Of a stretch of 32,000 nucleotides of DNA, positions 4,246 to 27,483 are shown piece after piece (position 1 is the first letter of the stretch; each line of letters starts with the position of its first letter). Location of the stretch: positions 930,001 to 962,000 of the forward strand of contig NZ_CP017260.1 in NCBI RefSeq assembly GCF_001735745.1. Direction: 5' to 3'. The position numbers and the translations under genes are program-made. Origin of the DNA: Formosa sp. Hel1_33_131 (GTDB lineage: Bacteria > Bacteroidota > Bacteroidia > Flavobacteriales > Flavobacteriaceae). The notes beneath the pieces were generated by a model that saw only the letters and a list, made by a program, of their open reading frames with translations, had not been told where the DNA came from and did no database searches.

Positions 4246-4659
4246 TTGAATAACATACTAAATATTTTACTGATAGAAGATAATTCTATTGAGATCATGA
4301 AAATGAAAAGAACTGTTTCCTTTTTAAAATTAGAGCATACTATAAATGAAGCCGAAAATGTAGATGAAGCTCTTGAGTTTTTAAAAGATCGAAGTAGAAT
4401 TCCTGATATTATTTTATTAGATTTAAACATGCCAAAGATAAGTGGAATAGAATTTTTATCAATTTTAAAGAATGATGAAAACTTAAAATACATACCCACA
4501 GTCATTTTAACAACATCTAACAATCAAAAAGATATCATAGAATGTTATACAATTGGTATATCAGGCTATATTCTAAAACCTTTAAAATATGAGGATTACG
4601 TTAAAAAAATTGAGAGAACTTTGGCTTATTGGAGTATAAACGAATTAAGAAGAACTTAA
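4246..4659 (+). CDS. Stand-alone receiver-domain response regulator (CheY-like, no output domain)
   Basis: 137 aa. REC signature residues are intact: LLIEDN (acidic pair), IILLDLNMPKISG (phospho-acceptor Asp), VILTTS (Thr) and GYILKPL (Lys-Pro). The start is TTG at 4246, because in-frame TAA lies at 4240-4242 and no ATG precedes the REC core. Confidence 0.85.
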   Translation: MNNILNILLIEDNSIEIMKMKRTVSFLKLEHTINEAENVDEALEFLKDRSRIPDIILLDLNMPKISGIEFLSILKNDENLKYIPTVILTTSNNQKDIIECYTIGISGYILKPLKYEDYVKKIERTLAYWSINELRRT

Positions 4660-4795
4660 AAAATGGAACATCCTCAATACAAGTCAAAAAATCTTTAAGA
4701 AATAACTAAAAGGAGGTAACATACTTGCAGTGAGCCTGCCTACCGCAGTTAGGCGCAGTTGAAATGTGACTGTTAAAATTAATATATATAAACAT

Positions 4796-5335
4796 ATGAA
4801 AGGGATCGTTTTTACAGAGTTTTTAGATTTAGTAGAAATTAAATTTGGTTTAGGAATGGTTGATAAAATCATCAATCAATCAAAATTAGAATCTGAAGGA
4901 ATCTATACATCTATTGGCACCTATAGTTTTTCCGAAATGTTGCAATTATTACAACATTTGAGTGCACAAACAGACATTTCAATAGATGGATTGTTATTGA
5001 CTTACGGAGAACATTTTTTTAGTGTTATAAAAAAAACCTACCCAGGTCTTTTAGCGACTTATAAAGACCCCATAGAAATGCTGTCATCCATAGAAAACCA
5101 TATTCATATAGAAGTTCGAAAAATATATCCTGATGCAGAATTCCCTACGTTTATAGTTGAAGAGAAAACAGAAAACTCTCTTATTATGATTTATAAATCT
5201 GGTAGGGCAATGCATCATTTTGGGTTGGGTTTAATGAACAAAACATTCGAACATTTTAATTCTACAGCTTCTATTGTTTTAGAAAAAATAAAAGAAGATG
5301 GCACCGAGGTAAAATTTATCATTACCAAGAATTAA
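4796..5335 (+). CDS. hnoX: H-NOX (heme nitric oxide/oxygen-binding) sensor protein
   Basis: I moved the start from the track's GTG 4766 to ATG 4796, giving the canonical H-NOX N-terminus MKGIVFTEFLDLV. The candidate proximal heme His lies in ..IENHIHIEVRKIYP.. (compare DEVHLQLTKM in the Thermoanaerobacter H-NOX). The heme-propionate YxSxR motif is present as YKSGR. Length is about 179 aa. The stop overlaps the kinase start (TAATG). Confidence 0.85.
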   Translation: MKGIVFTEFLDLVEIKFGLGMVDKIINQSKLESEGIYTSIGTYSFSEMLQLLQHLSAQTDISIDGLLLTYGEHFFSVIKKTYPGLLATYKDPIEMLSSIENHIHIEVRKIYPDAEFPTFIVEEKTENSLIMIYKSGRAMHHFGLGLMNKTFEHFNSTASIVLEKIKEDGTEVKFIITKN

Positions 5336-7314
5336 TGAGTCTAGAAAAAGTTGAAATATTAGACCGTGCGCTCAAAAGAGAAAAAGCTGCCCGAAAAGCT
5401 GCGGAAAGGATATTAGAAGAAAAATCTAGAGATTTATACTTTATATCGGAAGAACTAAAAGACGCCAACCTTCAATTCGAAAATCTTTTAGTCGAAAAAT
5501 CGTCTCAACTTCAGGGGGTTTTTGAAAACATAAATGATGCCTATTTAGTAATTGATTTAGAAGGGGAGGTTCTAAAAATGAACGATGTAGCCACAGAATT
5601 TTTTGGATACAACATTGATAATGAAAAAGTAAATGCCACCTGCTTAATCTATCCTAAAGATAAAGATTACGCCTTTAATTCTTTTAAGAAATTAAAAAAA
5701 CAAGGGTTTTTCACAAACTATGTAGCAAGGATACTCACTAAACAAAAAGAAATTAAATGGGTACAGATTAATGCAACCATTATTTTTAATAAAGAAAAAA
5801 AAGCTATTGGAGCGCAGGGGATTGTAAGAAATATTACATCCAATAAAGAAGCAGAAGACTTACTGATACAATCAGAAAAAAGACTGTCATCTCTCATTTT
5901 AAACTTAGATAGTGGAATCCTTTTAGAGGATGAAAAAAGACAAATCGTATTGACAAATACTAAGTTTTGTGCACTTTTTAAAATCCCAGTATCTCCAGAA
6001 TTATTGATTGGAGAAGATTGTTCTAATGCATCAGAACAAAGCAAAGTATTGTTTAAAGATCCAGAACAGTTTGTAACCAGAATTAATGAGATACTTAAAA
6101 ACAAAAAACAAGTTTTAGCAGATGAAGTCATAATGACAGATGGTACAATTTTAGAACGCGATTTTATTCCTATTGTAATTGGTCCTAAATATCAGGGTCA
6201 TTTATGGGCTTATAGAAATGTCACGCTCAAAAGGCAGTACAGCCAAAGTCTAGAAAGTCAAAAAGAAAAATACAGTAGCATTATAGCCAATATGAATTTG
6301 GGATTGATGGAGGTCAATAACAATAATGAGATACTGACGGTAAACCAAAGTTTTGTAGAGATGTCTGGTTATTCCGAGAAAGAGTTGCTTGGCGAGATTG
6401 GTGAAAATGTTTTTATAAAAAATAAAGACTTCGAAATCCTCCCCGATCAAAGTAAGAATCGTTCAAAAGGCAAATCGTATTCTCGCGAAATTACAATACA
6501 AGATAAAAAAGGAGTTAACAAAAGTTGGCTTAGTAGTGAGGCTCCAAATTATAATCTGAATGGAGAGATCGTTGGTTTTATAGGGATACATCTAGATATT
6601 ACAGAATTTAAATTACTAGAAAAGCAGAACGCAAAAATATTGATAGAATTAGAAAAAAGGAATAACGAATTACATGAATATGCACATATCGTTTCTCATG
6701 ATCTTAAAGCGCCTTTAAGAAGTATTGATGCCTTAGTCTCTTGGATTAAATCAGATAATAAAGGTAAACTGGATGAAGTCACAGTTCAAAACTTTGAATT
6801 GATTGAGGAAACATTGGAAACAATGGAGAGTTTAATTTTTAATGTTTTAGAATACTCAAGTGCAGGGGTCGCTATAGAAACCATAAATGAGGTAGACTTA
6901 AATTTGATTCTTGAAGATCTAAGGAAAATTATACTTATCCCAGAAAACATCTCTGTAATTATTTTAAAAAAACTACCTATTGTTAAAGGAGATATCACTA
7001 AATTTAAACAAATTTTTCAAAATTTAGTGAGTAATGCTGTAAAATTTTCTGATAAAGAAAAAGGAATCATTGAAGTTGATTTTAATGAAGAAGGATCCTT
7101 TTATCTGTTTTCTGTAAAAGACAATGGAATTGGTATTGATGAAAAACACCATGATAAAATTTTTAAAATTTTTCAGTCATTAAATAAAAGTAAAGAGTCC
7201 ACAGGCATTGGTTTATCGATCGTGAAGAAAGTCGTTGAGTTATACGAAGGAGATATTTGGCTAGAAAGTGAAGAAGGCAAAGGAACTACTTTTTATTTTA
7301 CTATAAAAAAATAG
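5335..7314 (+). CDS. Cytoplasmic multi-PAS sensor histidine kinase (H-NOX-associated, no receiver domain)
   Basis: 659 aa with no TM segments. N-terminal coiled coil (LDRALKREKAARKAAERILEEK) followed by repeated PAS-like blocks. H-box HEYAHIVSHDLKAPLRSI, N-box FQNLVSNAVKFS, G1 VKDNGIGI, G2 GIGLSIVKKVVELYEGDIWLESEEGKGTTF. Translationally coupled to the H-NOX gene. Confidence 0.9.
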   Translation: MSLEKVEILDRALKREKAARKAAERILEEKSRDLYFISEELKDANLQFENLLVEKSSQLQGVFENINDAYLVIDLEGEVLKMNDVATEFFGYNIDNEKVNATCLIYPKDKDYAFNSFKKLKKQGFFTNYVARILTKQKEIKWVQINATIIFNKEKKAIGAQGIVRNITSNKEAEDLLIQSEKRLSSLILNLDSGILLEDEKRQIVLTNTKFCALFKIPVSPELLIGEDCSNASEQSKVLFKDPEQFVTRINEILKNKKQVLADEVIMTDGTILERDFIPIVIGPKYQGHLWAYRNVTLKRQYSQSLESQKEKYSSIIANMNLGLMEVNNNNEILTVNQSFVEMSGYSEKELLGEIGENVFIKNKDFEILPDQSKNRSKGKSYSREITIQDKKGVNKSWLSSEAPNYNLNGEIVGFIGIHLDITEFKLLEKQNAKILIELEKRNNELHEYAHIVSHDLKAPLRSIDALVSWIKSDNKGKLDEVTVQNFELIEETLETMESLIFNVLEYSSAGVAIETINEVDLNLILEDLRKIILIPENISVIILKKLPIVKGDITKFKQIFQNLVSNAVKFSDKEKGIIEVDFNEEGSFYLFSVKDNGIGIDEKHHDKIFKIFQSLNKSKESTGIGLSIVKKVVELYEGDIWLESEEGKGTTFYFTIKK

Positions 7315-7316
7315 CT

Positions 7317-7634
7317 ATGGAACAACCTAATTTAATCTATATTGACAAGCTGGCTAATGGTGATGAATCTGTTAAAAAAAGACTTATCGAGATCATTAAA
7401 ACTGAATTTCCTAAAGAGAAAAAAGAGTACCTCCTAAGTTTAGAAAATCTTGATTATAAAAAAATTGAAGAAAATGTTCATAAACTTAAACATAAAATTA
7501 GTATACTAGGACTTGAAAAAAGTTATGAAATAGCAAATAAATTTGAACATAAACTTAGAGATCAACGTTTAATTGATTCTAAAAGTTTTGAGGGAATTTT
7601 AATAAAAATTTCAGAATATTTAAAAACGATTTAA
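7317..7634 (+). CDS. Histidine phosphotransfer (Hpt) domain protein
   Basis: 105 aa and predicted all-helical. The Hpt-type motif ENVHKLKHKISILGL matches HxLKGxxxxxG-like consensus. Starts 2 nt after the kinase stop and ends 5 nt before the LytTR regulator gene. Confidence 0.7.
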   Translation: MEQPNLIYIDKLANGDESVKKRLIEIIKTEFPKEKKEYLLSLENLDYKKIEENVHKLKHKISILGLEKSYEIANKFEHKLRDQRLIDSKSFEGILIKISEYLKTI

Positions 7635-7639
7635 ATTCT

Positions 7640-8344
7640 ATGAATTGTATTATTATTGATGATGAAGAAACTGCAAGAGTGATCATTAGAACGCTTTGTG
7701 ATGAAATAGGAAATTTAACTATTATTGACGAATTCCCTAACGCCATTCAAGCTATTAAATTCCTTAACGAAAATGAGATAGATCTTATTTTTTTAGATAT
7801 TCACATGCCCGATTTTAGTGGATTAGATTTTATTAAAGCATTAAAAAATCCACCTAAAATAATTTTAACAACATCCGATACAAAATTTGCAATTGAAGCT
7901 TTTGAATATGATTGTATTATAGATTATTTATTAAAGCCAATCGAAAGACCAAGATTTGAAAAAGCGATTTTAAAAACCAAAAAACACCAAGCTGTAAATA
8001 CTTCAAATACGAGCATTGCAGATTTAAATCACAAAAACGATTTTTATGTGAATATCGATAGACGTCTGATAAAAATTGATTTGCCTGAAATTTATCTTAT
8101 AGAGGCAAAAGGAGACTATATTCATATAAAAACAGAAGACAAAAATTATGTGGTACATTCTACATTGAAAAAAATAGAAGAGAAACTGCCAGAATCATTA
8201 TTCCTAAAGGTGCATCGCTCCTACATAATCAACGTTAAAAAAATTATTGATATCGAAGATAATAGTGTTTTAATCAAAAAAGATGTCATCCCTGTGAGTC
8301 GTTCTAACCGACCTGAATTGATGAAACGATTGGATTTGTTATAA
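7640..8344 (+). CDS. LytR/AlgR-family response regulator (REC + LytTR DNA-binding domain)
   Basis: 234 aa. REC: IIIDDEE, LIFLDIHMPDFSG, IILTTS, DYLLKPI. The C-terminal LytTR pattern is ..IYLIEAKGDYIHIKTEDKNYVVHSTLKKIEEKLPESLFLKVHRSYIINVKKI. Confidence 0.9.
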   Translation: MNCIIIDDEETARVIIRTLCDEIGNLTIIDEFPNAIQAIKFLNENEIDLIFLDIHMPDFSGLDFIKALKNPPKIILTTSDTKFAIEAFEYDCIIDYLLKPIERPRFEKAILKTKKHQAVNTSNTSIADLNHKNDFYVNIDRRLIKIDLPEIYLIEAKGDYIHIKTEDKNYVVHSTLKKIEEKLPESLFLKVHRSYIINVKKIIDIEDNSVLIKKDVIPVSRSNRPELMKRLDLL

Positions 8345-8406: not shown

Positions 8407-10470
8407 CTATTTTTTGAATAAAGGTTTCTTGAAAAGGTACCATTTAAACCTCAAACCAATTTCCGTAAATTTAAAACCTGCAGCAGACGCAGAAGCTATG
8501 TTACTCTGCAGCCCGTAAATGTTTAGAGCACTTCTTTCCTTAAATTTATATCCTAATTTTCCTTGAATTCTATAGGTACTTTGTTTTTGATCATCTTCTA
8601 TAAATTGATACCCAGTTGCTGCCGTTAATTCATAAAACCATTCATTATTTTTTGCAATATTTTCATCTTTTATTAGATTCACAAAAACTTCAACGGCATT
8701 AAATTTACGAGGACTAAAATAAATGGTAGGCACTGTCTTTTTAAAAGATATATTCTGGTAATTAAATCCTGCTTTTAATGACGGCTTATCTAAAATGCTG
8801 TAGTACAATGATGTAAATAGTAGGTTTCGTGTATTGTCATCATTTTGAAACGTGTAATAATATTGGGTAAACCATCCCAACCTAAAGTTAGTGTTTAAGC
8901 TGTAATTCACTAAAAAATTATTCTGTACAATTTCTCTATCTAACAGCTCCGCATTAAAATTTTGCAATTCTCTTTTATATCCCAATTCTAAATTCTGAAG
9001 TTTAAACGGCTTAATCTTCAAAGAAAAATCGGCTAATAGTTGGCTGTAATTTATTGTTTCTGTGTTTGATGAAGTGATGCCTAAACACCCTTTAAACGTC
9101 AAATTATTTAAGATTTGATAGAATATTCCCGCTAAAAAATTATTAGATTTAGCACTCATATTCGTAACCGAATTAGCGGTTGTTCTGTAATTATAGCTTG
9201 CTAATAGCTTAAGTTTAGTTGTAAAGGAAAATTCAGAATTAGCAGTATAAGAATAGGCTTCATTATTGCCATTATCAAAAGAGTACGAGGCTTTAGTTTC
9301 TATAAAAGGCGTGAAATGTCTATCTAAACTTTTAATGAAATTAGTCGCATCTTTTTGATTCTTATAAAAATTTAAGGTGTTTTTTGCACTCTTATAAGCC
9401 GCATCATAATAGCCAGAAGCTTTAAGTGCATTCGCTTTACCAAGGTTTCCATCAAAAGAAGTACTGTCGTTTTTTAAGATTAAATTATAATCAGAAATAC
9501 TTTTTTTAAAATCGCTTTTGTAAATGTTCAATGTCGCTCTTAACGCTAAAATCCAATTTTCTAAGTTTTTATTTTTCAACACTAAGTCATCAATCTCCTT
9601 TTCTGCCAAGGAATACTTCTTGTTCCAAATCAATGCTTGAATGTATCTTTCTGTCGTTTGGTTTTTTAAAGAAACATCCGTTTGCTCTGTGAGACTGTCA
9701 AACGCCGTTTGACTCACAACTAAAGCGGCTTTGTCATTACTTTTTAAATGTTCGGCGAGTGCAATTCCGTTTAACGATATGAATCGATTTGCGGGCGTGT
9801 CTCCTATAATTTCATAAATCTCTTTTGCCCTATCCATTTGATTTGAGATTAAATACAGATTTGCAAGATTCAATAACGTTTCTTTATCATTTGTAAAGTC
9901 CTCAAAATTTTCTTTCAATAGGGTTTCTGCTTCCAAATAATTTTGAAGCTTCATTTTATCGTTTGCCAATCCTAAACGCATATATTTTTTGGAAATCAAA
10001 GCATTTTTGTTTTTGGGCAACACAATTAGTGCTTTATCAACATAAATAATAGCATTCTCAAACTCTTTAAGATTAGACAACGTATTTGCATACCCTAAAA
10101 GCGCAGGGAAACTTGTGTCGTTTTCTTTTAGTAAATTTTGATAATAGCCTTTTGCGGAAGTATAATCTTTATTCCAAAGCAGCGCTTCTGCATAATTTAA
10201 TTTGACTTCAAAATCTGTTGGAAAATCATCTAAAAGAGCAGTGAATAAACGTACAGCTTTTTTTGAATCGCCATTTAAGCCAATCGCTCTCCCATAACAA
10301 AGACGTGCTGTTTTGTTGCTCGGATAGGTCTGTAATACTGTTTCAAAAAAGGTTTCTGCTAGTTTGAACTTACCGGTTTCTAAATAAGCGAAGCCCGTTT
10401 TCATTTCTTGAGAAACGCCACAAAAACTAATAAAGAAAGCGATTAGTAATGTACTATATTTTAATTTCAT
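8407..10470 (-). CDS. Outer-membrane protein: N-terminal TPR array plus C-terminal beta-barrel (PelB/PgaA/BcsC-like architecture)
   Basis: 687 aa with signal peptide MKLKYSTLLIAFFISFCGVSQE. About 370 aa of TPR-like helical repeats (FAYLETGKFKLAETFFETVLQTYPSN.., AEALLWNKDYTSAKGYYQNLLKEND.., YANTLSNLKEFENAIIYVDKAL..). The last ~290 aa have short alternating-hydrophobic strands rich in Y/N/S/T (ASYSFDNGNNEAYSYTANSEFSF.., LGYKRELQNFNAEL.., FTEIGLRFKWYLF). Confidence 0.7.
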   Translation of the reverse strand: MKLKYSTLLIAFFISFCGVSQEMKTGFAYLETGKFKLAETFFETVLQTYPSNKTARLCYGRAIGLNGDSKKAVRLFTALLDDFPTDFEVKLNYAEALLWNKDYTSAKGYYQNLLKENDTSFPALLGYANTLSNLKEFENAIIYVDKALIVLPKNKNALISKKYMRLGLANDKMKLQNYLEAETLLKENFEDFTNDKETLLNLANLYLISNQMDRAKEIYEIIGDTPANRFISLNGIALAEHLKSNDKAALVVSQTAFDSLTEQTDVSLKNQTTERYIQALIWNKKYSLAEKEIDDLVLKNKNLENWILALRATLNIYKSDFKKSISDYNLILKNDSTSFDGNLGKANALKASGYYDAAYKSAKNTLNFYKNQKDATNFIKSLDRHFTPFIETKASYSFDNGNNEAYSYTANSEFSFTTKLKLLASYNYRTTANSVTNMSAKSNNFLAGIFYQILNNLTFKGCLGITSSNTETINYSQLLADFSLKIKPFKLQNLELGYKRELQNFNAELLDREIVQNNFLVNYSLNTNFRLGWFTQYYYTFQNDDNTRNLLFTSLYYSILDKPSLKAGFNYQNISFKKTVPTIYFSPRKFNAVEVFVNLIKDENIAKNNEWFYELTAATGYQFIEDDQKQSTYRIQGKLGYKFKERSALNIYGLQSNIASASAAGFKFTEIGLRFKWYLFKKPLFKK

Positions 10471-10593
10471 TTGTAATTTTTTATCTACAGTAAGTTAAGC
10501 ATTAGCTATTAATGATTGACCGAAACAAAACGACCTTTCAACGATAATAGAGCTCTATTGGAAGTTATTAAGAAGATATTTACGCCACTATTA

Positions 10594-10902
10594 ATGATGA
10601 ATAAATTAATTATGACGTTACAAATTTTTGAAAAAAATGAGATATTTTATTTAAACGGAAGATTAAACAGGTCAACGTTAAAATCTTTCATCTCTTATTT
10701 TGAATACAATTTATCTCGAAATAAAAATGTAATCATAAATATTGATAACGTCATTGAAATTGATAAAAGTGGTCTAGAAGCCATGCGCAATTTTGCAAAG
10801 GTTGCAATCTTAAAACAAAAAGTATTTTCTATTGTTGGAAATGGTTGTAAAGAAATCTATGACGATTTTAAACAAACCAACCTTGCAGAATTAGCGCGTT
10901 GA
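10594..10902 (+). CDS. STAS-domain protein (anti-sigma-factor-antagonist/SpoIIAA-like)
   Basis: The track ORF starts at TTG 10516. I prefer ATG 10594 (MMNKLIMTLQIFEKNEIFYLNGRL..) or ATG 10612. The STAS pattern is VIINIDNVIEIDKSGLEAMRNF, with the DxSG Ser in the position phosphorylated in SpoIIAA. The MOP transporter gene starts 11 nt downstream. Confidence 0.6.
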   Translation: MMNKLIMTLQIFEKNEIFYLNGRLNRSTLKSFISYFEYNLSRNKNVIINIDNVIEIDKSGLEAMRNFAKVAILKQKVFSIVGNGCKEIYDDFKQTNLAELAR

Positions 10903-10913
10903 AAATCTAAATT

Positions 10914-12188
10914 ATGATTGCAAAACCCATCCCCTTTAAAGATAAATTCTCTACGGAGCAACTATTTATGATGAGTGCAATGCTTGTCAATGGGGGTAAT
11001 TATTTATATAATTTAGTGTTAGGCAGATTTCTAGGTCCCGAGAAATTTGCAGATGCGGCAATTCTAATCACCTTACTATTAGTGTTGTCTTTTGCTGCAA
11101 TGACATTTCAATTGGTCACTGCAAAATTTTCAGTGATTTTTGAGAATTCAGTGCTTCAATCGTTTATAGCAACTATTTACAAAAGTGCTACTGTTGTTGG
11201 CGTTGTTTTAGGAATCACAATTGTTTTGGTATCCTCAGAGTTACAAGAATTTTTCAAAACAACATCATCTAGTATGTTTGTTGTTTTTGGAATTGGCATT
11301 CCTTTTTACTTCTTAATGAGTGTGAATCGGGGCGTTTTTCAAGGTCAAAAAGAATGGATTCCTTTATCTGCGACCTATCAATTAGAAATGATGAGTCGGT
11401 TAGCAATTACTTTTGGATTGCTATGCCTTTTTGAAGTGGATTCGTCACTATTAATTGCCATTGGAATTATATGCTCATTTATCGTTGGTCTACTTCCATT
11501 TGAGTTTAACCCCCCCCCCTTTTTTAATCGTATCAAATTAAAGAAATCAGAAACCAAAATGGTACGTAATTTTTTTATAATTACGGCGTTTTATGAGGTC
11601 ACACTTATTGTCATTAACAACAGTGACATCTTATTAGTGAAACATTATTTCGAACCTTATGAAGCAGGCTTATATGCATCCTTAGCATTGATTGGTAGAG
11701 TCGTGTATTTTATAGCTTGGATGTTTGTCATGTTGTTATTACCAACCGTCGTGCAACTAAAAAAACAGGGCATATCTACAAGACCTATTTTATTTAAATA
11801 CGTTATTTATATTATTATAATTGCAGCCTCTATTGTTTTAGCGTGCTACTTGTTTCCGAATCAAATTATCAATATCTTATTTGGAAACGAGTATGTAGGG
11901 ATTGCTTCTTTATTGTGGAAGTATGCTTTCGCAACAGGTGTTTTTGCGGTCTCAAATATTTTCGCCTACTATTATTTATCTCTAGACAAGTATATTCCCG
12001 TAATCTTTTCGGGGGTTTTTGGTGTGTTACAGATAGCTTTAATCATACAATTTCATGCGTCTTTAGAGCAAATTGTTCATCTTCAAATTTTTGCGATGAT
12101 TTTACTGTTAGGAGTACAGATAACCTTCTTTATTTTAAACGATATGATCTCTAAAAATAAGAGCCTGAAGAATCTTTCTCACCATTAA
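10914..12188 (+). CDS. MOP-superfamily polysaccharide transporter / flippase-like membrane protein (Wzx/PelG-like)
   Basis: 424 aa and highly hydrophobic, about 12 predicted TM segments in two halves. The N-terminal block FMMSAMLVNGGNYLYNLVLGRFLGPEKFADAAIL is typical of polysaccharide-biosynthesis (PST/Wzx) proteins. Confidence 0.75.
   Translation: MIAKPIPFKDKFSTEQLFMMSAMLVNGGNYLYNLVLGRFLGPEKFADAAILITLLLVLSFAAMTFQLVTAKFSVIFENSVLQSFIATIYKSATVVGVVLGITIVLVSSELQEFFKTTSSSMFVVFGIGIPFYFLMSVNRGVFQGQKEWIPLSATYQLEMMSRLAITFGLLCLFEVDSSLLIAIGIICSFIVGLLPFEFNPPPFFNRIKLKKSETKMVRNFFIITAFYEVTLIVINNSDILLVKHYFEPYEAGLYASLALIGRVVYFIAWMFVMLLLPTVVQLKKQGISTRPILFKYVIYIIIIAASIVLACYLFPNQIINILFGNEYVGIASLLWKYAFATGVFAVSNIFAYYYLSLDKYIPVIFSGVFGVLQIALIIQFHASLEQIVHLQIFAMILLLGVQITFFILNDMISKNKSLKNLSHH
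11510..11525 (+). repeat. Homopolymeric C10 followed by T6 inside the MOP transporter CDS (candidate slipped-strand phase-variation tract)
   Basis: Read directly as aaC CCC CCC CCC TTT TTT, encoding N-P-P-P-F-F. It is by far the longest G/C run I found by eye in the window; the next longest were C6 runs. Confidence 0.9.
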
Positions 12189-14949: not shown

Positions 14950-16142
14950 AGTTTTTTAGTTTTAAATGTTTGTGTAATTCCTGCCGCTGTAACTTCTAAA
15001 TTGTAGTTGCCATTTTCATAAATATTAGGGTCTAAATCAAAAGTTACAAACCCATCATTTGTCGTTTTAAAAATGTTATTTACAAACGCCCCTTCTTTAT
15101 AGATTGATAACGTAACGCGCAGGCCGTCAGGAATCCTTTGATTCATAAAACTTTTTAAGGGACCTACCTTTAGTACTCTATTTGTGTCTGAAAAATGCAC
15201 GTCAAATGTTTCGATTACTTTTGTGTAACTAATTTCCAGGGGATTGCTTTCAGAGATGCCCGCTATATAGGCTTTGATTCTCCAATTTTCTTGATGATCT
15301 GGGTGAATCATTTTTGCGTTTGCAATACCGTTTATGGTAGTTCCAGATGTTTTTAGAATATTTCCTTTTTTGTTTGTGATAAAAAAGGTGACAAAAGTCC
15401 CATCGCTTACAATATTATTATTCTTGTCTTTTATAATTGAGGTAGTAAACGTTGTGATTTGATTTCCATCTGCATACGCGTGGTTACGTTTTGAAAAAAT
15501 ATCAAAATTTGTGCCAATTGCGGGCATTATATTTACGTCGTATTCTTTTGAATTTAATCCTAAAGATTCCGCAGAAAGGATCATTCTTCCACTTTTTAGG
15601 GGAGAAAAAATAGTTTGGTATGCTATTAAATTGTTGGTAAAAATGTTGGTTTCTTTTTCTGATGTCATAAATTGATGTTTGATACCAACTTTTGTGTATT
15701 GTTTTAGAGGGTTGTCAAAATCATCTGTAGGAATCACAACGAGCATCGTAAAATCGGTTCCACCAGCTTCAATACTCGGAGGCCCAATATAGGATTCTAA
15801 TAAAACTGGTTTCGCTTTGGGTACAATTTTAAATTTACCAGAAATTGATTCTTTTAAACCTACAATTTTCCACCCCACAACACCTGTTTTATCACTAATA
15901 TATTTTGGAATTTTGAAAACTAACGTGTCCTTATTAATTTCAGAATTAAGCAATGTACTTCCATAGCTATTTGTACAATACAATTGATACTTTCTAGCAT
16001 TGCGAGTCTTAAATTCCAACAGGATTGTACTTCCAGCCACAAATTGTTTTTCTTGAGTTAAAAGTGCCAACGCATTTTGAGCGTTCATAGAATGCATTGC
16101 TAACAAGTAAATAAGAAGAAAAAAGTTGTTTTTTATATTCAT
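14943..16142 (-). CDS. Secreted/periplasmic protein with bacterial Ig-like (Big_1-type) repeats
   Basis: 399 aa with signal peptide MNIKNNFFLLIYLLAMHSMNAQNA. The Ig-like repeat pattern is ADGNQITTFTTSIIKDKNNNIVSDGTFVTFFITNKKGNIL..TINGIANAKM. Sandwiched by overlapping stop/start codons between the 1029-aa membrane protein and the GH5-like gene. Confidence 0.6.
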   Translation of the reverse strand: MNIKNNFFLLIYLLAMHSMNAQNALALLTQEKQFVAGSTILLEFKTRNARKYQLYCTNSYGSTLLNSEINKDTLVFKIPKYISDKTGVVGWKIVGLKESISGKFKIVPKAKPVLLESYIGPPSIEAGGTDFTMLVVIPTDDFDNPLKQYTKVGIKHQFMTSEKETNIFTNNLIAYQTIFSPLKSGRMILSAESLGLNSKEYDVNIMPAIGTNFDIFSKRNHAYADGNQITTFTTSIIKDKNNNIVSDGTFVTFFITNKKGNILKTSGTTINGIANAKMIHPDHQENWRIKAYIAGISESNPLEISYTKVIETFDVHFSDTNRVLKVGPLKSFMNQRIPDGLRVTLSIYKEGAFVNNIFKTTNDGFVTFDLDPNIYENGNYNLEVTAAGITQTFKTKKLW

Positions 16143-19100
16143 TATTTTGGGTTTCCTATATAACTATTCATTTCAATTTTTACAAAAGAATAAAGTGGGT
16201 GCGCTATTTTCTGTAATTCAGTATTTGTGTGATTTGCTATTCTGTTAGGGACTATTTTATTAGAAATAGCGGCATTTGGCAACCCATTCACATAACAATT
16301 ACTCATGTCTTCATTTACAATCGTGAGTTGTTTATGAGTTGTGAAATTATATTCAAAATAGTGTTTGCGCTGTTGTCTTATTCCGTGTTCTAAAAACAGA
16401 TGGTCCACCCAAACCATTTTTTTGTTTTGGTCATAATAAGTAATCAGTAATTGTGGAACTGTAATTTCGTGTAAGCCACTATTAAAAAGCGTTCCTTTAA
16501 TCGTTTCAGGATGGACTTTAACATCACTTAAAACACTGTATTTATATAAATCAGAATTGGACACATTCCCTGCGGCTTGTAAATTAAATTTAGTGGGGTG
16601 TTCTTCAAATTCTACAGGCGTGAATTCTTCAGGGTTGAATGTTTTAGGGATAGAATCTTTTGTTTTGGACCATGCAATTCCTTCAAAATTAATTCTAAAA
16701 GAGCTGACTTCTTTAGGCATTAATTTATGTTTTACATGAAACTTGGCATTATAGGTTGCTAACTCTTTGTTTTGGTCATTGTAAAGGGTCCCTTTTAGAA
16801 CAACATCTGCTGGTACATTGTCTATGTTTTGCACCTCCCCAATAATGGCATAATGGGAATTAAACTTTACTAGTTTTGCTGAAATAATCTCTAATACGGG
16901 TTGCTTCAAAACATCTTCGTGATGTGTTTGTTCTGTGGTAATTCTTCTTCTTCCTTGATTAAAATAACCTGTTACATTATGAGAATACAATTGATCTGGT
17001 GGTAAATCAGAATCGACCTTGTCTAGTTTTAAAAACCATTTACGGTTTCTCTTTACAATAGTTTTAAAATCGGTTTTACTAATTTTCTCCAAAGGAGTAA
17101 TCCAATTTGTATGCACTTTTAAAGTCACTAAACTATCCGTTTCTGTAATGGTTTCTGTGCGAATGGCATCTAACTTTGCATACGAGCTCAACAAGCCATC
17201 CGTCACAGAAACTTCGAGCATAAATTGAGAAATAGAGATCTTACTTTCCGGGTCTATGAATTGATAGCTTTTTTCAAATTCATTGAAATCCAACGCATCA
17301 TAATACGCCGTTACGAGGTTTTCTGGCGAAATTTGAGATTCATTTTTGACATAAAACATATACAACCAAAACCCTAAAGTGACTCCTAGAATTACAACCC
17401 AAATATGAAGCGATTTTAAAACGCCGCTTGAGAATTGGGTGTGCGTATATTTATTATTTAAATAGGCGGGGATTATCTCTGGTTTATTTTTTAACCTCCT
17501 AAAAAAAAGACTTTGAATATTTATTATAATCGCAAAAATAACGGTTAGAAAAGGAATAATGCCCCACACTATTTTTTGCCAAGTAGCGACATCCTCTTTT
17601 GGTAAGATTGAAGAAAGAGGAGCAACGTTTAATTTTTCCCAAACCATAATTCCGTTTTCTAAATGTGATAAACGTTGCCATCCGCAGAAGTATAAAATAG
17701 GATCGTAAAATTTATCATTAGAAAATATATACTTTAAATTGTATTTTTCTGGAGTCGTTAAAAACTGTTGTAAAGAACCAATCCCTGCAACCCCTTTAAA
17801 TTTTGAGTTTTCTAAACGTTCAATAGGCCGTGTCGTTAGTTCAGGCAAACGTCTTGCAGAATGGTAATTCCCATCAACAGTCATCGCATTTGTTTTGGCG
17901 GCCAACCACGCCATTTGATCTCCAAAACCTAATGTTAAATACCGCCATTGATCATGCTGGTCTTGGTTTAGAAAATTAACAATGGGTAACATTTTAATCT
18001 TTTGGGGTTGAGCGGGTCGAAAACGCTGTAAGTTTGTAGTAAAAATGGTTATTGATAAAAATAAACCTACCAATATCCCCCCAATTAAACGATGATAAAG
18101 TATTCCGAATTTTTGTTGAATTAGTTGTTTTAAATCGCCTTCTACAAAACGGTATGCTAGCTCCCCAAACAGTGGCAAAGACATAATAGAAGCCCAAAGT
18201 GAAAACCGATCTAAAGTGAGTATACTAAATGCATTTTCGCCTAAAATAATCTTTGGAATTGGGGTGGTTCCTCCAGTTCCTAAAATTAATAACAATGTAA
18301 AAGAAAGTCCGAAAAACAAATAACGTTTGCTGAAATATCTGTAAAAAAAATACGGCATGAGAAATAATAAGACCCCCCAAGGAATCAAAAAGAATACAAA
18401 TCCAGAAGATGTGATTTCTAAAAAATTATCTCGGGAACCATGAGGTATAGGAACTTGTGTGATTGGATTGTTTTTAGAATTTATCCAATACGGCAAGATG
18501 CAGCCAATAATTACAACTAATGAAAGCATCCCAAAAGTTAGGTTTCTTTTAAACTGTGTTCTGAAGTTTTTTATAAATAATTTAAACGTGATTTCTTTGT
18601 TTGAGTTTACTTCTTCTCTAGAAATATCTAAGATCACCATCCCTATTATTGGAAAAATAAAGAAGATCATTCCAAAAATTGGAGTCACATGATGGGAGGT
18701 CACCGTGACCGCAATTAATGAAAGGGAGGTCAATAAATACCTATATTTTCCAGTTTTAAGCCATGAATAAGTTTCAGGCAATGCATGCATTAAAACAGCG
18801 ATTCCTATAATGCTTGGCAGTTGCCCAAAAACATGAAGGGTTTCTACAAATGATGATGAAAAAACAGCTAAAAGAGCGGCATAGCTAGCAACAGTTTTGT
18901 TGGAACTCATCAACAAAGAAAAACGATATACACCCGTTATAAATAAAATGACACTAAGTATAGAAACCGTGAAAAGTCCAAATTTTAATCCCCCAATCAA
19001 AGAGAATGCGGCCATAGATTGGTGAACTAAAGGTGGATAACTCATCACCGAAAAACCTGTGTACCATTTAAAATTCCAAGGCTCAAACCAATTATTGGCA

Positions 19101-19231
19101 TAATGTTCTGCAAAAAACAAATGTATGAGCGCATCATAAGTCGTCTCTAAAGTAAGAAACATAGCACCCCCATGAAAAGCAATCCCTAAAAGTATCGCTA
19201 AAATTAAATATTTATGAGAAGTCTTTTTCAT
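16142..19231 (-). CDS. Large polytopic membrane protein with GT-C-like architecture and a large extracytoplasmic C-terminal region; function unknown
   Basis: 1029 aa. About 12-13 TM segments lie in the first ~400 aa, with an Asp-containing first loop (LETTYDALIHLFFAEHYANNWFEPW). A soluble segment follows (QWRYLTLGFGDQMAWLAAKTNAMTVDGNYH..), then two more TM segments (VWGIIPFLTVIFAIIINI; LHIWVVILGVTLGFWLYMFYV). The ~400-aa C-terminus has an NTF2-like stretch (ENLVTAYYDALDFNEFEKSY..) and two similar beta-rich modules (VLKGTLYNDQNKELATYN.. / TIKGTLFNSGLHEITVPQLLITYYDQNKK..). The CDS is solid. The GT-C assignment is architectural only. Confidence 0.65.
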   Translation of the reverse strand: MKKTSHKYLILAILLGIAFHGGAMFLTLETTYDALIHLFFAEHYANNWFEPWNFKWYTGFSVMSYPPLVHQSMAAFSLIGGLKFGLFTVSILSVILFITGVYRFSLLMSSNKTVASYAALLAVFSSSFVETLHVFGQLPSIIGIAVLMHALPETYSWLKTGKYRYLLTSLSLIAVTVTSHHVTPIFGMIFFIFPIIGMVILDISREEVNSNKEITFKLFIKNFRTQFKRNLTFGMLSLVVIIGCILPYWINSKNNPITQVPIPHGSRDNFLEITSSGFVFFLIPWGVLLFLMPYFFYRYFSKRYLFFGLSFTLLLILGTGGTTPIPKIILGENAFSILTLDRFSLWASIMSLPLFGELAYRFVEGDLKQLIQQKFGILYHRLIGGILVGLFLSITIFTTNLQRFRPAQPQKIKMLPIVNFLNQDQHDQWRYLTLGFGDQMAWLAAKTNAMTVDGNYHSARRLPELTTRPIERLENSKFKGVAGIGSLQQFLTTPEKYNLKYIFSNDKFYDPILYFCGWQRLSHLENGIMVWEKLNVAPLSSILPKEDVATWQKIVWGIIPFLTVIFAIIINIQSLFFRRLKNKPEIIPAYLNNKYTHTQFSSGVLKSLHIWVVILGVTLGFWLYMFYVKNESQISPENLVTAYYDALDFNEFEKSYQFIDPESKISISQFMLEVSVTDGLLSSYAKLDAIRTETITETDSLVTLKVHTNWITPLEKISKTDFKTIVKRNRKWFLKLDKVDSDLPPDQLYSHNVTGYFNQGRRRITTEQTHHEDVLKQPVLEIISAKLVKFNSHYAIIGEVQNIDNVPADVVLKGTLYNDQNKELATYNAKFHVKHKLMPKEVSSFRINFEGIAWSKTKDSIPKTFNPEEFTPVEFEEHPTKFNLQAAGNVSNSDLYKYSVLSDVKVHPETIKGTLFNSGLHEITVPQLLITYYDQNKKMVWVDHLFLEHGIRQQRKHYFEYNFTTHKQLTIVNEDMSNCYVNGLPNAAISNKIVPNRIANHTNTELQKIAHPLYSFVKIEMNSYIGNPK

Positions 19232-19412
19232 ATTTATGGAGGGCTCATTTTCATTATTGTAAATGTAAATCTTAAAAATGTCTCCTGAAATTTTTTCAAC
19301 TTAGGCAAACTTCCATTCGCCTAAACAAAAGCTACTTTAGAACTTTACGACCCCTATTTATTAGGAAACAAAACTACTTTTGAAGTCATTTAAGTAATGA
19401 TAATTATGAAAG

Positions 19413-19431
19413 ATCCATAACTAAATCTTGA
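19413..19431 (+). promoter_or_regulatory. Conserved 19-nt element, copy 2 (atcCATAACTAAATCTTga), in the leader region of the REC-GT2 gene
   Basis: 17/19 identity with 12209..12227. It lies 64 nt upstream of ATG 19495 and downstream of a TAnnTTTG-type -7 box candidate (TACTTTTG, 19375-19382). Confidence 0.3.
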
Positions 19432-19494
19432 TTCCTAATGGAATGATCAAATGGATGTAACATGTAATCATTAAAAATCAATAAAAAATAACAC

Positions 19495-20703
19495 ATGAAA
19501 GTACTAGCGATTGATGACCAAAAATTAGTTCTGATTCCTTTAGAAAATAGACTGAAGGAGTTAGGCTATGAAGTACGTACTGCAACAAACGCTTTAGATG
19601 CGATAGATCTATATGACTCTTTTCATCCAGATTTAATCATTGTGGATATTAACATTCCATTTATGTCAGGTATGGAAGTGGTGAAATATATTCGTAAGAC
19701 AAAAAATTCATCTACACCAATTATGATTTTATCAGGCAATACAGAGGATGCTATCATCCTAGAAGGTTTTGATCTCGGCATCAATGACTATATGAAAAAG
19801 CCCCTAAGCTTAATTGAAGTTTGTGCAAGAGTGAAAAAATTAATTGGAGCTCCTAAAACTAATAATAAAACGATCCTAAATAAAGGGATCATCATTCAAC
19901 AACGCTGTGTTGGGGTGGTCATCCCTTGTTATAATGAAGAAAAAAGATTGATACATAAAGAATTTACAGATTTCATTGATAAAAATTCAGGATATTATTT
20001 GTGTTTTGTAAATGATGGCAGTACCGATAACACACTAGAAATTTTAAACGGTTTAAGAAACGAAAGGGAAGACTTTATTACGGTCTTTAATTGCAAAAAA
20101 AACGTTGGTAAAGCCGAAGCTGTAAGACAAGGAATGCTGTTGATGTCTAAAAAAGAAGATTTAGATTATATCGGCTTTTTAGATGCCGATTTATCTACAG
20201 ACCTAACCGATTTTGACGATTTAGTGTCAACTATAGAAAATTCTGAATACATGATCGTAAGTGGCTCTAGAATAAGCAGAATGGGAGCAAACATTACCAA
20301 AAGATCTGTTAGGTCTGTAATAAGCTTGGCCATAAACTTTATGATCAGAAAAATTCTTTCTATGGATTTTCAAGACACCCAGTGTGGCGCAAAAATCTTT
20401 CATAAAGAAGTCATTGGAATTTCATTCGATAAAAAATTTGTAACTAAATGGATTTTTGACGTTGAAATATTTAGAAGAATCACTTTACATTTTGGCTTAA
20501 AAAAAACAAAAAAAATACTTTGTGAGCAACCCCTAAAACGATGGATTCATGTGGATAACTCAAGGTTGTCAATGAAAGATTCTATCAAAATTGTGGGGCA
20601 ATTGGGACAAATTGCTTGGTCTTATAGACGCAAAAACAAAACACTGTCAAAACTAAGAGATCTTCATAAGAATAAGCCCGTTTCTATCTCAGAAATACAA
20701 TAA
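19495..20703 (+). CDS. Response-regulator receiver domain fused to a family-2 glycosyltransferase (polyprenyl-phosphate sugar transferase-like, DPM1/ALG5/GtrB type)
   Basis: 402 aa. The REC domain has all catalytic residues: AIDDQ, LIIVDINIPFMSG, IMILSG, DYMKKPL. The GT2 domain has VGVVIPCYNEE, CFVNDGSTDNT, NVGKAEAV, the DxD motif as FLDADLS, and QDTQCGAKIF (compare the DTQCGFK motif of dolichyl/undecaprenyl-phosphate glucosyltransferases). Confidence 0.85.
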   Translation: MKVLAIDDQKLVLIPLENRLKELGYEVRTATNALDAIDLYDSFHPDLIIVDINIPFMSGMEVVKYIRKTKNSSTPIMILSGNTEDAIILEGFDLGINDYMKKPLSLIEVCARVKKLIGAPKTNNKTILNKGIIIQQRCVGVVIPCYNEEKRLIHKEFTDFIDKNSGYYLCFVNDGSTDNTLEILNGLRNEREDFITVFNCKKNVGKAEAVRQGMLLMSKKEDLDYIGFLDADLSTDLTDFDDLVSTIENSEYMIVSGSRISRMGANITKRSVRSVISLAINFMIRKILSMDFQDTQCGAKIFHKEVIGISFDKKFVTKWIFDVEIFRRITLHFGLKKTKKILCEQPLKRWIHVDNSRLSMKDSIKIVGQLGQIAWSYRRKNKTLSKLRDLHKNKPVSISEIQ

Positions 20704-20705
20704 AA

Positions 20706-21137
20706 ATGAGCATGAAAAAAGGAATCATAATCGTATTTTCTAACAATGAAAAAGAGATTAAAGAAACCCAATTTGATAAGCTTTTAGATAAAGATGTTGC
20801 GGAATTTTGTTTTGTGAATAACGCAAGTAATGATCATACTTTAGACAAACTAAAAGACATTAAAACTAAAACCTTTAACAATATATCTATTGTAGATGTA
20901 AAAAAAAATAAAGGCACAAAAGCAGCTATTAAAGCAGGCGTCAGGTATCTGGTTAATAATAAAGAGTTGAAGTTAATTATCTATTTAGTGTTTTATAAAA
21001 ATACTGACTTTTTAAATTTAGAATATACGCTCAATATTATGATGAATAGAAATAAAAAAATAATCAACCTAAACACAAACAATCGAAATATTTTACAAAA
21101 TGTGTTTTCACTAGAACAGCTCATTAAAAAAATATAA
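20706..21137 (+). CDS. Truncated, degenerate GT2-like protein (N-terminal half-domain paralog of the preceding GT2)
   Basis: 143 aa. By-eye alignment to REC-GT2 residues ~140-215: GIIIVFSNNEKEI / GVVIPCYNEEKRL; CFVNNASNDHTLDKL / CFVNDGSTDNTLEIL; KKNKGTKAAIKAGVRYL / KKNVGKAEAVRQGMLLM. The nucleotide-binding Asp is changed (VNDGSTD to VNNASND), and the DxD and acceptor half are absent. Starts 2 nt after the REC-GT2 stop. Confidence 0.55.
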   Translation: MSMKKGIIIVFSNNEKEIKETQFDKLLDKDVAEFCFVNNASNDHTLDKLKDIKTKTFNNISIVDVKKNKGTKAAIKAGVRYLVNNKELKLIIYLVFYKNTDFLNLEYTLNIMMNRNKKIINLNTNNRNILQNVFSLEQLIKKI

Positions 21138-21144
21138 AGATAAT

Positions 21145-21176
21145 TTTGTCCGAAATAAAAATAAATACTATTTTTG
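21145..21176 (+). promoter_or_regulatory. Bacteroidota-type promoter candidate for the Rrf2 operon (-33 TTTG, 20-nt spacer, -7 TATTTTTG)
   Basis: TTTG at 21145-21148 and TATTTTTG at 21169-21176 match the TTTG / TAnnTTTG consensus with the expected ~19-21 nt spacing. They lie 20 nt upstream of ATG 21196. TAnnTTTG alone is frequent in AT-rich DNA. Confidence 0.45.
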
Positions 21177-21195
21177 TACTCATTAATAATATAAA

Positions 21196-21630: not shown

Positions 21631-21675
21631 AAAAAAATAATCTTAATAAAGATAAAAAGGTCTTTATATCTGTAT

Positions 21676-23445: not shown

Positions 23446-23448
23446 CAA

Positions 23449-24450: not shown

Positions 24451-24460
24451 TATTATTATT

Positions 24461-24697
24461 ATGAAAATAGACTATTTAGAAAGCTTACAATGTAAAACTC
24501 CTGCAGAAGGCAGGCTGCTCGCCTTTACCCTTGCTAGAAAAACAATCGCTGCAATTCAAACGAATCCTGAAGTTCGTGAAAAGCTCAGGTCTCAATATTC
24601 AGAAGATACCGCCCAATTAATAGCCTCCTCTCAAGTGGTCGCTATTGAATTTCAAACCATTGCCATGGCAAACAACTACTGGAAAGATGAAAAATAA
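24461..24697 (+). CDS. Hypothetical small soluble protein
   Basis: 78-aa ORF in the operon's coding direction with an ATG start 10 nt after the ccoO-like stop. No recognisable motif. Its end overlaps the next gene's probable start. Confidence 0.35.
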   Translation: MKIDYLESLQCKTPAEGRLLAFTLARKTIAAIQTNPEVREKLRSQYSEDTAQLIASSQVVAIEFQTIAMANNYWKDEK

Positions 24698-25746: not shown

Positions 25747-25791
25747 ACATCAACACATCAATAGAAATTAAATCTTCTAGAAACATTAGAA

Positions 25792-27160: not shown

Positions 27161-27161
27161 A

Positions 27162-27464: not shown

Positions 27465-27483
27465 CTAAGTAAAAAGGGGAGAA

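Follow-up and report, generated by a model that had tools for sequence, protein, structure and literature searches.

A receiver domain fused to a family 2 glycosyltransferase in Formosa sp. Hel1_33_131: a candidate phosphorylation-gated polyprenyl-phosphate-hexose synthase within a conserved glycan module

In a 32,000-nucleotide stretch of the genome of Formosa sp. Hel1_33_131 (contig NZ_CP017260.1, positions 930,001 to 962,000; hereafter the window), one gene encodes a protein in which a complete response-regulator receiver domain (REC) is fused to a family 2 glycosyltransferase (GT2). This REC-GT2 protein is read here as a phosphorylation-gated polyprenyl-phosphate-hexose synthase that would act as the donor-charging enzyme of the adjoining gene module, feeding a periplasmic glycosylation pathway of the three-component type. 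The probability of this reading is put at roughly 55 %. It is carried by the conservation of the fusion with its signature residues intact, by the affinity of the GT2 domain with polyprenyl-phosphate glycosyltransferases and by the synteny of the module.

In the mechanism that we infer, REC-GT2 would act at the cytoplasmic face, moving a hexose to undecaprenyl phosphate from a nucleotide-sugar donor, most likely GDP-mannose. The lipid-linked sugar would be flipped by a Wzx-like protein and then used in the periplasm by a 1029-aa membrane protein (MEM1029), a probable GT-C enzyme, to build or decorate a glycan. A GT4 enzyme, a membrane-anchored GH5-like hydrolase and Ig-like, TPR and STAS proteins would assist. 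Phosphorylation of Asp51 in the receiver would switch the enzyme, the most probable route being alpha4-beta5-alpha5 dimerisation leading to an oligomeric, membrane-engaged active state. In this way a two-component signal would gate the donor supply post-translationally.

Architecture of the fusion protein

The original prediction, made from the letters of the window, described a 402-aa open reading frame (ORF) with a complete REC and a GT2 domain. Both are present exactly as claimed and all quoted motifs are in place (Table 1). The receiver matches Pfam Response_reg (PF00072) at residues 3-113 with an E-value of 9.9e-25 (87 bits, cut-off 30), and the match spans 110 of the 111 model positions. 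Its signature residues are D7-D8, the phospho-acceptor D51 in IIVDINIP (codon 19645-19647), S80 in ILSG, the aromatic switch residue Y99 and K102-P103 in MKKPL. The GT2 domain matches Glycos_transf_2 (PF00535) at residues 141-306 with an E-value of 1.2e-20 (75 bits, cut-off 23). It carries CYNEE (145-149, with YNE at 146-148), VNDGSTD (172-178, with D174) and DAD (230-232, nt 20182-20190), TQCGAKIF (295-302), of which QCGAK (296-300) is encoded by nt 20380-20394, as well as WIFDVEIF and QPLKRWIH. The linker between the domains is variable in sequence and nearly constant in length across the aligned orthologs. It comprises about 20 residues (118-137), not the ~25 first estimated.

The protein had been said to lack a transmembrane (TM) segment, and this was borne out by a Kyte-Doolittle scan, in which none was found (best 19-residue mean 1.24, threshold 1.6). 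Amphipathic, strongly basic stretches occur twice in the GT2 domain, at 258-290 and at 357-388, with a net charge of +5 in both. These could be membrane-interface helices, in parts of the AlphaFold2 (AF2) model where the confidence is low. The receiver part of the same model reaches a pLDDT of ~90 and displays the (beta-alpha)5 pattern. The identical protein of Formosa sp. Hel1_33_131 in the database, WP_069676265.1, is annotated only as 'response regulator', and other annotation pipelines label it 'CheY-like.../glycosyltransferase'. A scan of 19100-21700 for sigma-70 promoters and terminators, with a model that does not describe Bacteroidota promoters, gave sites that are no commoner than in shuffles.

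Conservation of the fusion

Both domains are found in all of the best 120 database homologs (72-100 % identity), which come from Tenacibaculum, Polaribacter, Kordia, Psychroserpens, Lacinutrix and others. The identical protein occurs on 72 contigs. In a genome scan with one genome per species, the full fusion was detected in ~42 loci at 50-81 % identity to the window protein, including Zobellia, Flavobacterium columnare, Salegentibacter and metagenome-assembled genomes (MAGs) of Chitinophagales and Spirosomataceae. The conservation of single residues was followed in 35 aligned orthologs and in these ~42 genome loci. The six receiver signature residues (D7, D8, D51, S80, Y/F99 and K102) are unchanged in all intact copies, with F99 at one locus, and the same holds for YNE, D174, DAD and QCGAK in the glycosyltransferase. 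This motif conservation does not extend to a DAG variant (L032), a divergent paralog (L030) and the disrupted genes at L035 and L037. By their GT2 domains, the fused proteins group in one clade with zero stand-alone members inside, and the median identity to the window protein is 65 % for REC and 74 % for GT2. A single clade with a receiver nearly as conserved as the enzyme points to one old fusion, of which both halves appear to have been maintained by selection.

The spread of the architecture, which the original prediction proposed to survey, extends to more than 100 proteins. It had also been considered that a sequencing or assembly error might join two separate genes here. This was an a-priori possibility, to which only the split of the ORF at L035 and L037 can be added, and those cases are exceptions that look like frameshifts or pseudogenes. 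The same continuous ORF recurs in independent genomes and metagenomes, and with 72 identical contigs, more than 100 homologs and a constant linker length the artefact is excluded for all practical purposes.

At the two disrupted loci (L035 9983-11185, Lacinutrix neustonica; L037 9995-11205, Flavobacterium covae) the frame is broken within or after the receiver. A frameshift or pseudogene may account for this, or else an assembly error, and at both loci the GT2 part still clusters inside the REC-fused clade. Many divergent REC-GT2 relatives (31-45 % identity) have kept the receiver and lost DXD and/or QCGAK, as in YIDIEQG/QDALSGLK and GFTYPEM. These proteins (P0243, P0244, P0247-P0250, P0254, P0256, P0260, P0261, P0264 and P0333) are apparently REC-fused pseudo-glycosyltransferases. 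Two REC-GT2 paralogs are present within the module at L027 and L030 (L030 6222-7292), and the DAG variant, from Leptobacterium (L032 9995-11149), is flanked by two stand-alone GT2 paralogs.

A further small, conserved gene starts 2 nt past the REC-GT2 stop codon. Its product corresponds to the N-terminal, nucleotide-binding half of a GT2 in degenerate form, with Asn at the D174 position and with no DXD, QCGAK or acceptor half. Directly downstream of REC-GT2, homologs of 110-167 aa are encoded in ~21 scan loci, against 0 of the 17 module loci with a stand-alone GT2. The loci with a homolog are L002-L012, L014, L016, L018, L026, L035, L038, L040, L049, L081, L082, L084 and L085. The half-GT2 may serve the fusion protein as a pseudoenzyme partner.

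The GT2 domain and its likely sugar

When the GT2 part was searched against the PDB as a single sequence, ArnC and GtrB were its only solved relatives (E 7.5e-6 to 1.8e-4). A profile (A3) was built from the window GT2 domain and 56 stand-alone relatives, and the seven best distinct PDB sequences found with it comprise ArnC (4.5e-18), GtrB (4.3e-16) and the Pyrococcus dolichol-phosphate-mannose synthase (DPMS, 3.9e-14). The alignments to these enzymes run beyond DXD into the juxtamembrane region, to profile positions ~150-182, whereas other GT2s (chondroitin synthase, TagF-associated, GalT1 etc.) align over the N-terminal nucleotide-binding half only, to ~100-130. NCBIfam gave partial, sub-threshold matches to ArnC, PpgS, PgfS and AglJ. 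From the best profile matches, the GT2 domain belongs with the polyprenyl-phosphate glycosyltransferases. The original prediction had reached the same placement through a QCG[FA]K motif ascribed to DPM1, ALG5, GtrB and ArnC; the placement holds on the profile comparison, but the motif is not common to ArnC or GtrB and is of the ALG5 type.

The transferred hexose is most likely mannose, with glucose as the alternative. A type I mannose-6-phosphate isomerase (PMI) gene lies directly downstream of the GT2 gene, with or without REC, in 23 scan loci and at L081, L082 and L084. In Algoriphagus a mannose-1-phosphate guanylyltransferase (Pfam NTP_transferase 7.9e-44 and ManC beta-helix 1.3e-13) is encoded between GT2 and the MEM1029 homolog, and orthologs of the GH5-like hydrolase have weak GH5_mannosidase matches. 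The synteny with PMI and GDP-mannose pyrophosphorylase, together with the mannosidase matches, favours mannose over glucose. Some orthologs bear the UniRef name 'dolichyl-phosphate beta-glucosyltransferase'. In Cyclobacteriaceae (Algoriphagus sp. SE2, L060 3627-17469, and L059) the module has been rearranged into a co-directional operon of GT2, guanylyltransferase, MEM1029 homolog, two small genes and GT4.

The conserved glycan module

For the analysis of synteny, all window proteins were run against 80 related loci and all ORFs of those loci were clustered. The module has the order TPR (-) / STAS-like, 424-aa membrane protein, GT4 (+) / GH5-like, Ig-like, MEM1029 (-) / GT2 with or without REC (+). 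It is syntenic in ~55 loci, and MEM1029 adjoins the GT2 gene in 57 loci. In the window REC-GT2 is the divergent neighbour of the module, separated from the MEM1029 gene by a 263-bp spacer. At 17 module loci the same slot holds a GT2 of 270-310 aa without REC, which is ~45 % identical and has kept all catalytic motifs. These REC-less enzymes are found in Dokdonia, Aquimarina, Nonlabens, Leeuwenhoekiella, some Patiriisocius and Flaviramulus, Algoriphagus and a Saprospiraceae MAG. Since the same slot is filled by an enzyme without a receiver, the receiver can be seen as a regulatory accessory of an enzyme whose job is the same in its absence.

Table 1. Features of the window that are discussed in the text, with positions counted from its first nucleotide
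Feature	Position	Strand	Evidence and remarks
REC-GT2 fusion gene	19495..20703	+	402 aa, ATG start, single unbroken ORF
REC domain, residues 1-117	19495..19845	+	Pfam Response_reg; D7/D8, D51, S80, Y99, K102-P103
Inter-domain linker, residues 118-137	19846..19905	+	Alignment; AF2 low-confidence segment 124-138
GT2 (GT-A fold) catalytic domain, residues 138-402	19906..20703	+	Pfam Glycos_transf_2, profile vs PDB
Half-GT2 small protein, 143 aa	20706..21137	+	Pfam Glycos_transf_2 at residues 7-81, E 1.3e-6
MEM1029, candidate GT-C-type glycosyltransferase	16142..19231	-	TM scan, Foldseek, weak family Pfam
Ig-like (invasin-D3/Big_1-like) secreted protein, 399 aa	14943..16142	-	Weak Pfam Invasin_D3; signal peptide; 53 loci
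GH5-like glycoside hydrolase, 504 aa	13435..14949	-	Pfam Cellulase E 2.7e-14, Glyco_hydro_2_C; 53 loci
Cytoplasmic GT4 (GT-B), 395 aa	12239..13426	+	Pfam Glycos_transf_1, Glyco_trans_1_4, E ~2e-18; 53 loci
Candidate Wzx/MOP flippase, 424 aa, 9-10 TM	10914..12188	+	TM scan; Pfam of orthologs; 50 loci
Small STAS (SpoIIAA-like) protein	10612..10902	+	10516..10902 in ORF list, likely start Met33 by homology; 35 loci
TPR protein, 687 aa, module edge	8407..10470	-	Pfam TPR families; signal peptide; 39 loci
H-NOX phosphorelay operon, five genes; candidate signalling input	4246..8344	+	Pfam
Stand-alone REC, 137 aa	4246-4659	+	Pfam E 1.6e-21; TTG start; heads H-NOX operon
H-NOX	4766-5335	+	Pfam
PAS-PAS-HisKA-HATPase kinase without own receiver	5335-7314	+	Pfam
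Hpt-like protein	7317-7634	+	Match below Pfam threshold
REC-LytTR regulator	7640-8344	+	Pfam

In MEM1029, at least nine TM segments are spread over residues 1-620, and the C-terminal ~400 residues are soluble; the window copy has no Pfam domain. Its N-terminus is positively charged, and right after the first TM helix (4-30) follows an invariant loop, T31-Y32-D33-A34...H37...H43-Y44. This TYDA stretch lies where GT-C enzymes carry a catalytic acidic residue. Within the MEM1029 family, PF10131 is matched weakly in 24 of 46 members (best E 8.8e-7) and PMT_2 in 3 of 46 (1.8e-6). PF10131 is a member of the Pfam GT-C clan (PMC7801869). Two distant homologs carry the NCBI name 'glycosyltransferase family 39 protein'. 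When the AF2 model (pLDDT 67.7, TM core 80-93) was compared to the PDB with Foldseek, STT3 oligosaccharyltransferase subunits were the only membrane-protein matches, with a probability of 1.0 over 434-670 aligned columns. MEM1029 is considered a probable GT-C enzyme. In the model, its residues ~636-1029 form an NTF2-like domain (TM-score ~0.6 to 3k7c and 2jq5) followed by beta-sandwiches that resemble transglutaminase C-terminal barrels, and NCBIfam reports a weak FxLYD-domain match at 795-848. This periplasmic part may be a glycan-binding or ruler region.

The remaining members of the module are listed in Table 1. The window copy of the 424-aa membrane protein has zero Pfam matches, and its orthologs match Polysacc_synt or Polysacc_synt_3, of the Wzx/MOP flippase family. 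The GH5-like hydrolase has an N-terminal membrane anchor (TM segment 11-29). For the STAS protein, the Pfam STAS match in the window stays below the threshold (E 7.7e-4), while its orthologs match STAS without qualification and the family profile finds TM1442 (7.6e-6) and also SpoIIAA. In parallel to the cyanobacterial STAS-glycosyltransferases, it may provide a second, different regulatory input to the module. The idea of an Asp at the STAS phospho-Ser position, which comes after the conserved Asp, was dropped, as the profile alignment revealed that this position is not conserved and is a Lys in the window. In some genomes the STAS gene is present as a tandem pair.

The combination of a synthase, a flippase and a GT-C enzyme is an established three-component glycosylation pathway (PMC11127046). 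Here the synthase candidate and the flippase candidate are syntenic and MEM1029 is a tentative GT-C component, with GT4, GH5-like, Ig-like, TPR and STAS proteins as extra parts that the prototypes lack. A module with a GT-C-like protein and a Wzx-like flippase is a setting that needs a lipid-linked sugar donor. Remote stand-alone relatives of the GT2 (36-43 % identity; Lutibacter, Flavobacterium) occur without the module. Their direct neighbour is a PMT/PMT_2 GT-C enzyme (Pfam E 1.5e-25), a double LAB_N protein, or a protein of 1035 aa with multiple TM segments and TPR. Their position beside PMT enzymes suggests that the pairing with enzymes that use lipid-phosphate-linked sugars is a trait of the GT2 clade.

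Weighing a conventional Wzx-dependent pathway

Several observations weigh against a gated synthase with MEM1029 as its GT-C partner. The Pfam matches in the MEM1029 family are all sub-threshold, and the STT3 matches are marginal, with E-values of 2e-3 to 1e-2 and TM-scores of 0.24-0.38. A profile of MEM1029 (A1) found nothing among the PDB sequences with hmmsearch even at E 10, and hhalign aligned its N-terminal 640 residues to PMT-family proteins (c9) with a probability of 0.4. As for the sugar, no PMI or guanylyltransferase gene was found in the window, and the TQCGAK motif resembles the TQCGFK of the glucose enzyme ALG5. The AF2 model of the full fusion, built on a shallow alignment, reaches a pLDDT of 61.6 (below 50 in the C-terminal half) and a pTM of 0.39, so the REC-GT2 interface is unreadable in it and no inter-domain conclusion is drawn. 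Conserved receiver residues prove neither phosphorylation nor its effect. Finally, with a GT4 and a Wzx-type protein in the module, the pathway could be of the conventional Wzx-dependent kind, with the GT2 as an ordinary chain-builder.

In such an exopolysaccharide pathway the GT2 would act on an undecaprenyl-diphosphate-linked oligosaccharide, still under the control of REC, and MEM1029 would be a polymerase, a ligase-like or an export component in place of a GT-C enzyme using lipid-phosphate-linked sugars. A Polysacc_synt/Wzx-family protein beside a GT4 is indeed what is seen in Wzx/Wzy loci. A GtrA-type flippase is absent from the module, the link of MEM1029 to GT-C enzymes is weak at the sequence level, and REC-GT2 lacks the TM helices of GtrB, ArnC and the Pyrococcus DPMS. 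The GT2 profile, however, follows ArnC, GtrB and DPMS over ~180 positions and chain-builders over the first ~100 only. Moreover, bona fide PMT GT-C enzymes are the partners of distant relatives, STT3 is the sole membrane fold match of MEM1029, and the conserved module contains no initiating phosphoglycosyl transferase, Wzy or Wzz. A chain-building role is accordingly held to be unlikely, and the polyprenyl-phosphate-hexose synthase is preferred.

The receiver domain and the proposed switch

The best PDB and NCBIfam matches of the receiver are OmpR/PhoB-type receivers (MicA, YycF, PhoP, RpaB), at ~40 % identity. The winged-helix DNA-binding C-terminus of this family is absent, the C-terminus being GT2, and the NCBIfam OmpR-type matches cover the first 120-150 residues only and lie far under the cut-offs. 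By sequence, it is only the REC subtype that resembles OmpR/PhoB, and the protein is not a member of that family. In OmpR/PhoB receivers, phosphorylation leads to alpha4-beta5-alpha5 dimerisation, and GtrB and ArnC are tetramers in the deposited structures. Taken together, these two properties suggest that phospho-Asp51 would promote the oligomeric, membrane-engaged active state proposed above. The gating of catalysis by phosphorylation is a prediction, and a relief of autoinhibition as in CheB would be equally compatible.

It could also be imagined that the receiver is a constitutive dimerisation or scaffold module, or a phosphate sink, and that the enzyme runs constitutively. The REC-less orthologs in the same module suggest that the receiver is dispensable for catalysis, most genomes have no adjacent kinase, and many divergent paralogs keep REC after the loss of the catalytic motifs. 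Yet the DD, D, S, Y/F and K positions are invariant in ~42 loci down to 50 % identity, which would not be expected for a mere scaffold, and in the main clade both domains are intact together. A constitutive receiver is consequently regarded as rather improbable compared to a phosphorylated one.

Two further arrangements concern the receiver. In Algibacter (L007 10001-10372 and L010 10001-10372) a 123-aa stand-alone paralog of the REC-GT2 receiver is encoded directly upstream of the fusion gene. In Salegentibacter maritimus (L021 2003-3938) the module itself contains, between GT4 and the GH5-like gene, a single REC and a PAS/HisKA/HATPase kinase of 291 aa that has a PAS fragment beside it. Both arrangements suggest that the receiver takes part in real phosphotransfer networks.

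The H-NOX relay as a candidate input

The window also contains a five-gene H-NOX operon upstream of the module (Table 1). From their domains, its two RECs, the Hpt-like protein and the receiver-less kinase make up the parts list of a four-step phosphorelay. The original prediction named this relay as the obvious candidate for the input to REC-GT2. H-NOX operons do recur beside the module. The same five-gene order is found at L028, L032 and L083. At L028 (Algibacter MAG) and L032 (Leptobacterium) the operons lie 2-10 kb from REC-GT2 in differing arrangements, and at L083 (uncultured Dokdonia) the operon stands directly against the STAS-GT4 side of the module. At L060 (Algoriphagus) the operon of GT2, guanylyltransferase and MEM1029 homolog is preceded divergently by another set, which consists of an NtrC-type sigma-54 activator, H-NOX and a 1357-aa hybrid kinase. 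H-NOX genes are rare, and with five or six adjacencies in differing arrangements chance is an unlikely explanation.

The direct connection to the receiver fared less well. At L083 and L060 the GT2 has no REC despite the H-NOX system beside the module, so the link there would run via LytTR or NtrC-type transcription factors. An adjacency specific to the REC-fused form was rejected on account of these two loci. In six genomes with REC-GT2 (L081, L082, L084-L087; Polaribacter pectinis, Winogradskyella, T. finnmarkense, Kordia, Flavivirga and Aureibaculum) neither an H-NOX operon nor a kinase is found beside the module, which adds to the points against the gated reading and led to the rejection of H-NOX adjacency as a rule. 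From the gene neighbourhoods, nitric oxide (NO) signalling appears to be wired to the module in some genomes, probably via transcription, and REC-GT2 would usually be an orphan response regulator.

It can still be asked whether the relay in the window, 11-15 kb upstream, is the phosphodonor, with NO gating the enzyme through Hpt-to-REC transfer. The combination of a receiver-less kinase with a separate REC and an Hpt-like protein allows branching to several receivers, H-NOX systems are near REC-GT2 at L028 and L032 and abut the module at L083 and L060, and in the window the module is flanked on its other side by Rrf2, haem-copper oxidase, globin and RIC genes. The REC-less GT2s at L083 and L060, the six genomes without an adjacent operon or kinase and the sub-threshold Hpt match speak against it, and this donor is judged doubtful.

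The NO- and haem-related block mentioned above (21196-28572, + strand) encodes an Rrf2-family regulator with weak NsrR/IscR-like matches, a COX1-family haem-copper oxidase subunit (589 aa), a fusion of FixO and cytochrome c (333 aa), a bacterial globin, a tryptophan-dioxygenase-like protein and a RIC/ScdA-hemerythrin protein. In the window genome the glycan module is in this way bracketed by NO-related genes, with the H-NOX operon upstream and this block downstream. No genes of the block were found near the module in the other scanned loci.

The most far-reaching version would have the NO-responsive relay phosphorylate REC-GT2 directly and thereby switch the supply of undecaprenyl-phosphate-mannose to a new GT-C family, the polymerase of a periplasmic or surface mannan in marine Flavobacteriaceae. 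This version is speculative and improbable. If true, it would be the first case of two-component control over a lipid-linked sugar donor, and NO would act on surface glycan and biofilm independently of cyclic di-GMP (c-di-GMP).

Relation to known systems

Response regulators with enzymatic outputs are well known, as in CheB, PleD/WspR, RpfG and PorX. REC-GT2 shares with them an N-terminal REC with the full set of phospho-acceptor residues, a flexible linker and an enzyme. Their outputs are methylesterases, cyclases, phosphodiesterases or phosphatase-like enzymes, whereas a glycosyltransferase acting on a lipid is predicted here. With GtrB, ArnC, DPM synthase, Ppm1, PpgS, CsbB and GacI, REC-GT2 has in common a GT-A domain with DXD. 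It differs from GtrB, ArnC and PfDPMS, the Pyrococcus enzyme, in having no C-terminal TM helices, and an N-terminal receiver is present in no characterised member of the group. Mycobacterial Ppm1 and PpgS and human DPM1 are also devoid of C-terminal TM helices. The likeness to the three-component systems (PMC11127046) lies in the pairing with two membrane proteins, a candidate flippase and a candidate GT-C-type enzyme.

The original prediction knew of no characterised REC-glycosyltransferase, and none was found in the literature that was searched. The architecture as such has already been catalogued: REC-GT fusions of Methanobacteriaceae (MTH_548 type) are known from sequence in Galperin's census (PMC5847659). 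These too consist of REC fused to a family 2 glycosyltransferase domain, but the archaeal output is a BcsA/cellulose-synthase-like processive enzyme (PF13641) with one or two RECs, in contrast to PF00535 in Bacteroidota. By their domains, the two look like independent fusions. Literature searches on a characterised REC-glycosyltransferase, on this Formosa gene and on the function of PF10131 returned only this archaeal census, a STAS-glycosyltransferase preprint and a TMTC/GT-C paper.

The preprint describes the cyanobacterial STAS-glycosyltransferases All4160 and XssP, in which glycan synthesis is controlled post-translationally (bioRxiv 10.64898/2026.04.08.717354). In these enzymes, as in the c-di-GMP-gated BcsA-PilZ, PelD and Alg44, a signalling domain is attached or bound to glycan machinery, and the present module also encodes a STAS protein. 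There, Ser phosphorylation or c-di-GMP acts at the polymerising synthase, whereas His-Asp phosphotransfer at the lipid-linked donor is predicted for REC-GT2. Control of glycan synthesis is known at the level of transcription or, through c-di-GMP, at the polymerising synthase; to our knowledge, no lipid-linked donor pool has been described as controlled by His-Asp phosphotransfer.

H-NOX two-component and phosphorelay systems control biofilm in Shewanella, Vibrio and Pseudoalteromonas, via c-di-GMP enzymes or transcription factors. The window shares with them an H-NOX gene beside a histidine kinase, Hpt and several response regulators, and in five or six loci such genes are near surface-polysaccharide genes. 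We know of no glycosyltransferase that has been described as a direct phospho-acceptor of an H-NOX system.

Biological significance

If the reading of REC-GT2 as a gated donor-charging enzyme is true, the novelty would lie in where control is exerted, at the lipid-linked donor, and in the module that is served. The protein and this module are conserved in Bacteroidota of ecological and economic importance, among them Formosa and Polaribacter, which are associated with blooms, and Tenacibaculum and Flavobacterium columnare, which are fish pathogens. REC-GT2 offers a tractable entry to it, as a soluble enzyme for which phospho-mimic alleles can be made and for which natural REC-less orthologs serve as controls. 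The recurrent H-NOX neighbourhood further suggests that nitric oxide sensing is linked to surface glycans in Bacteroidota.

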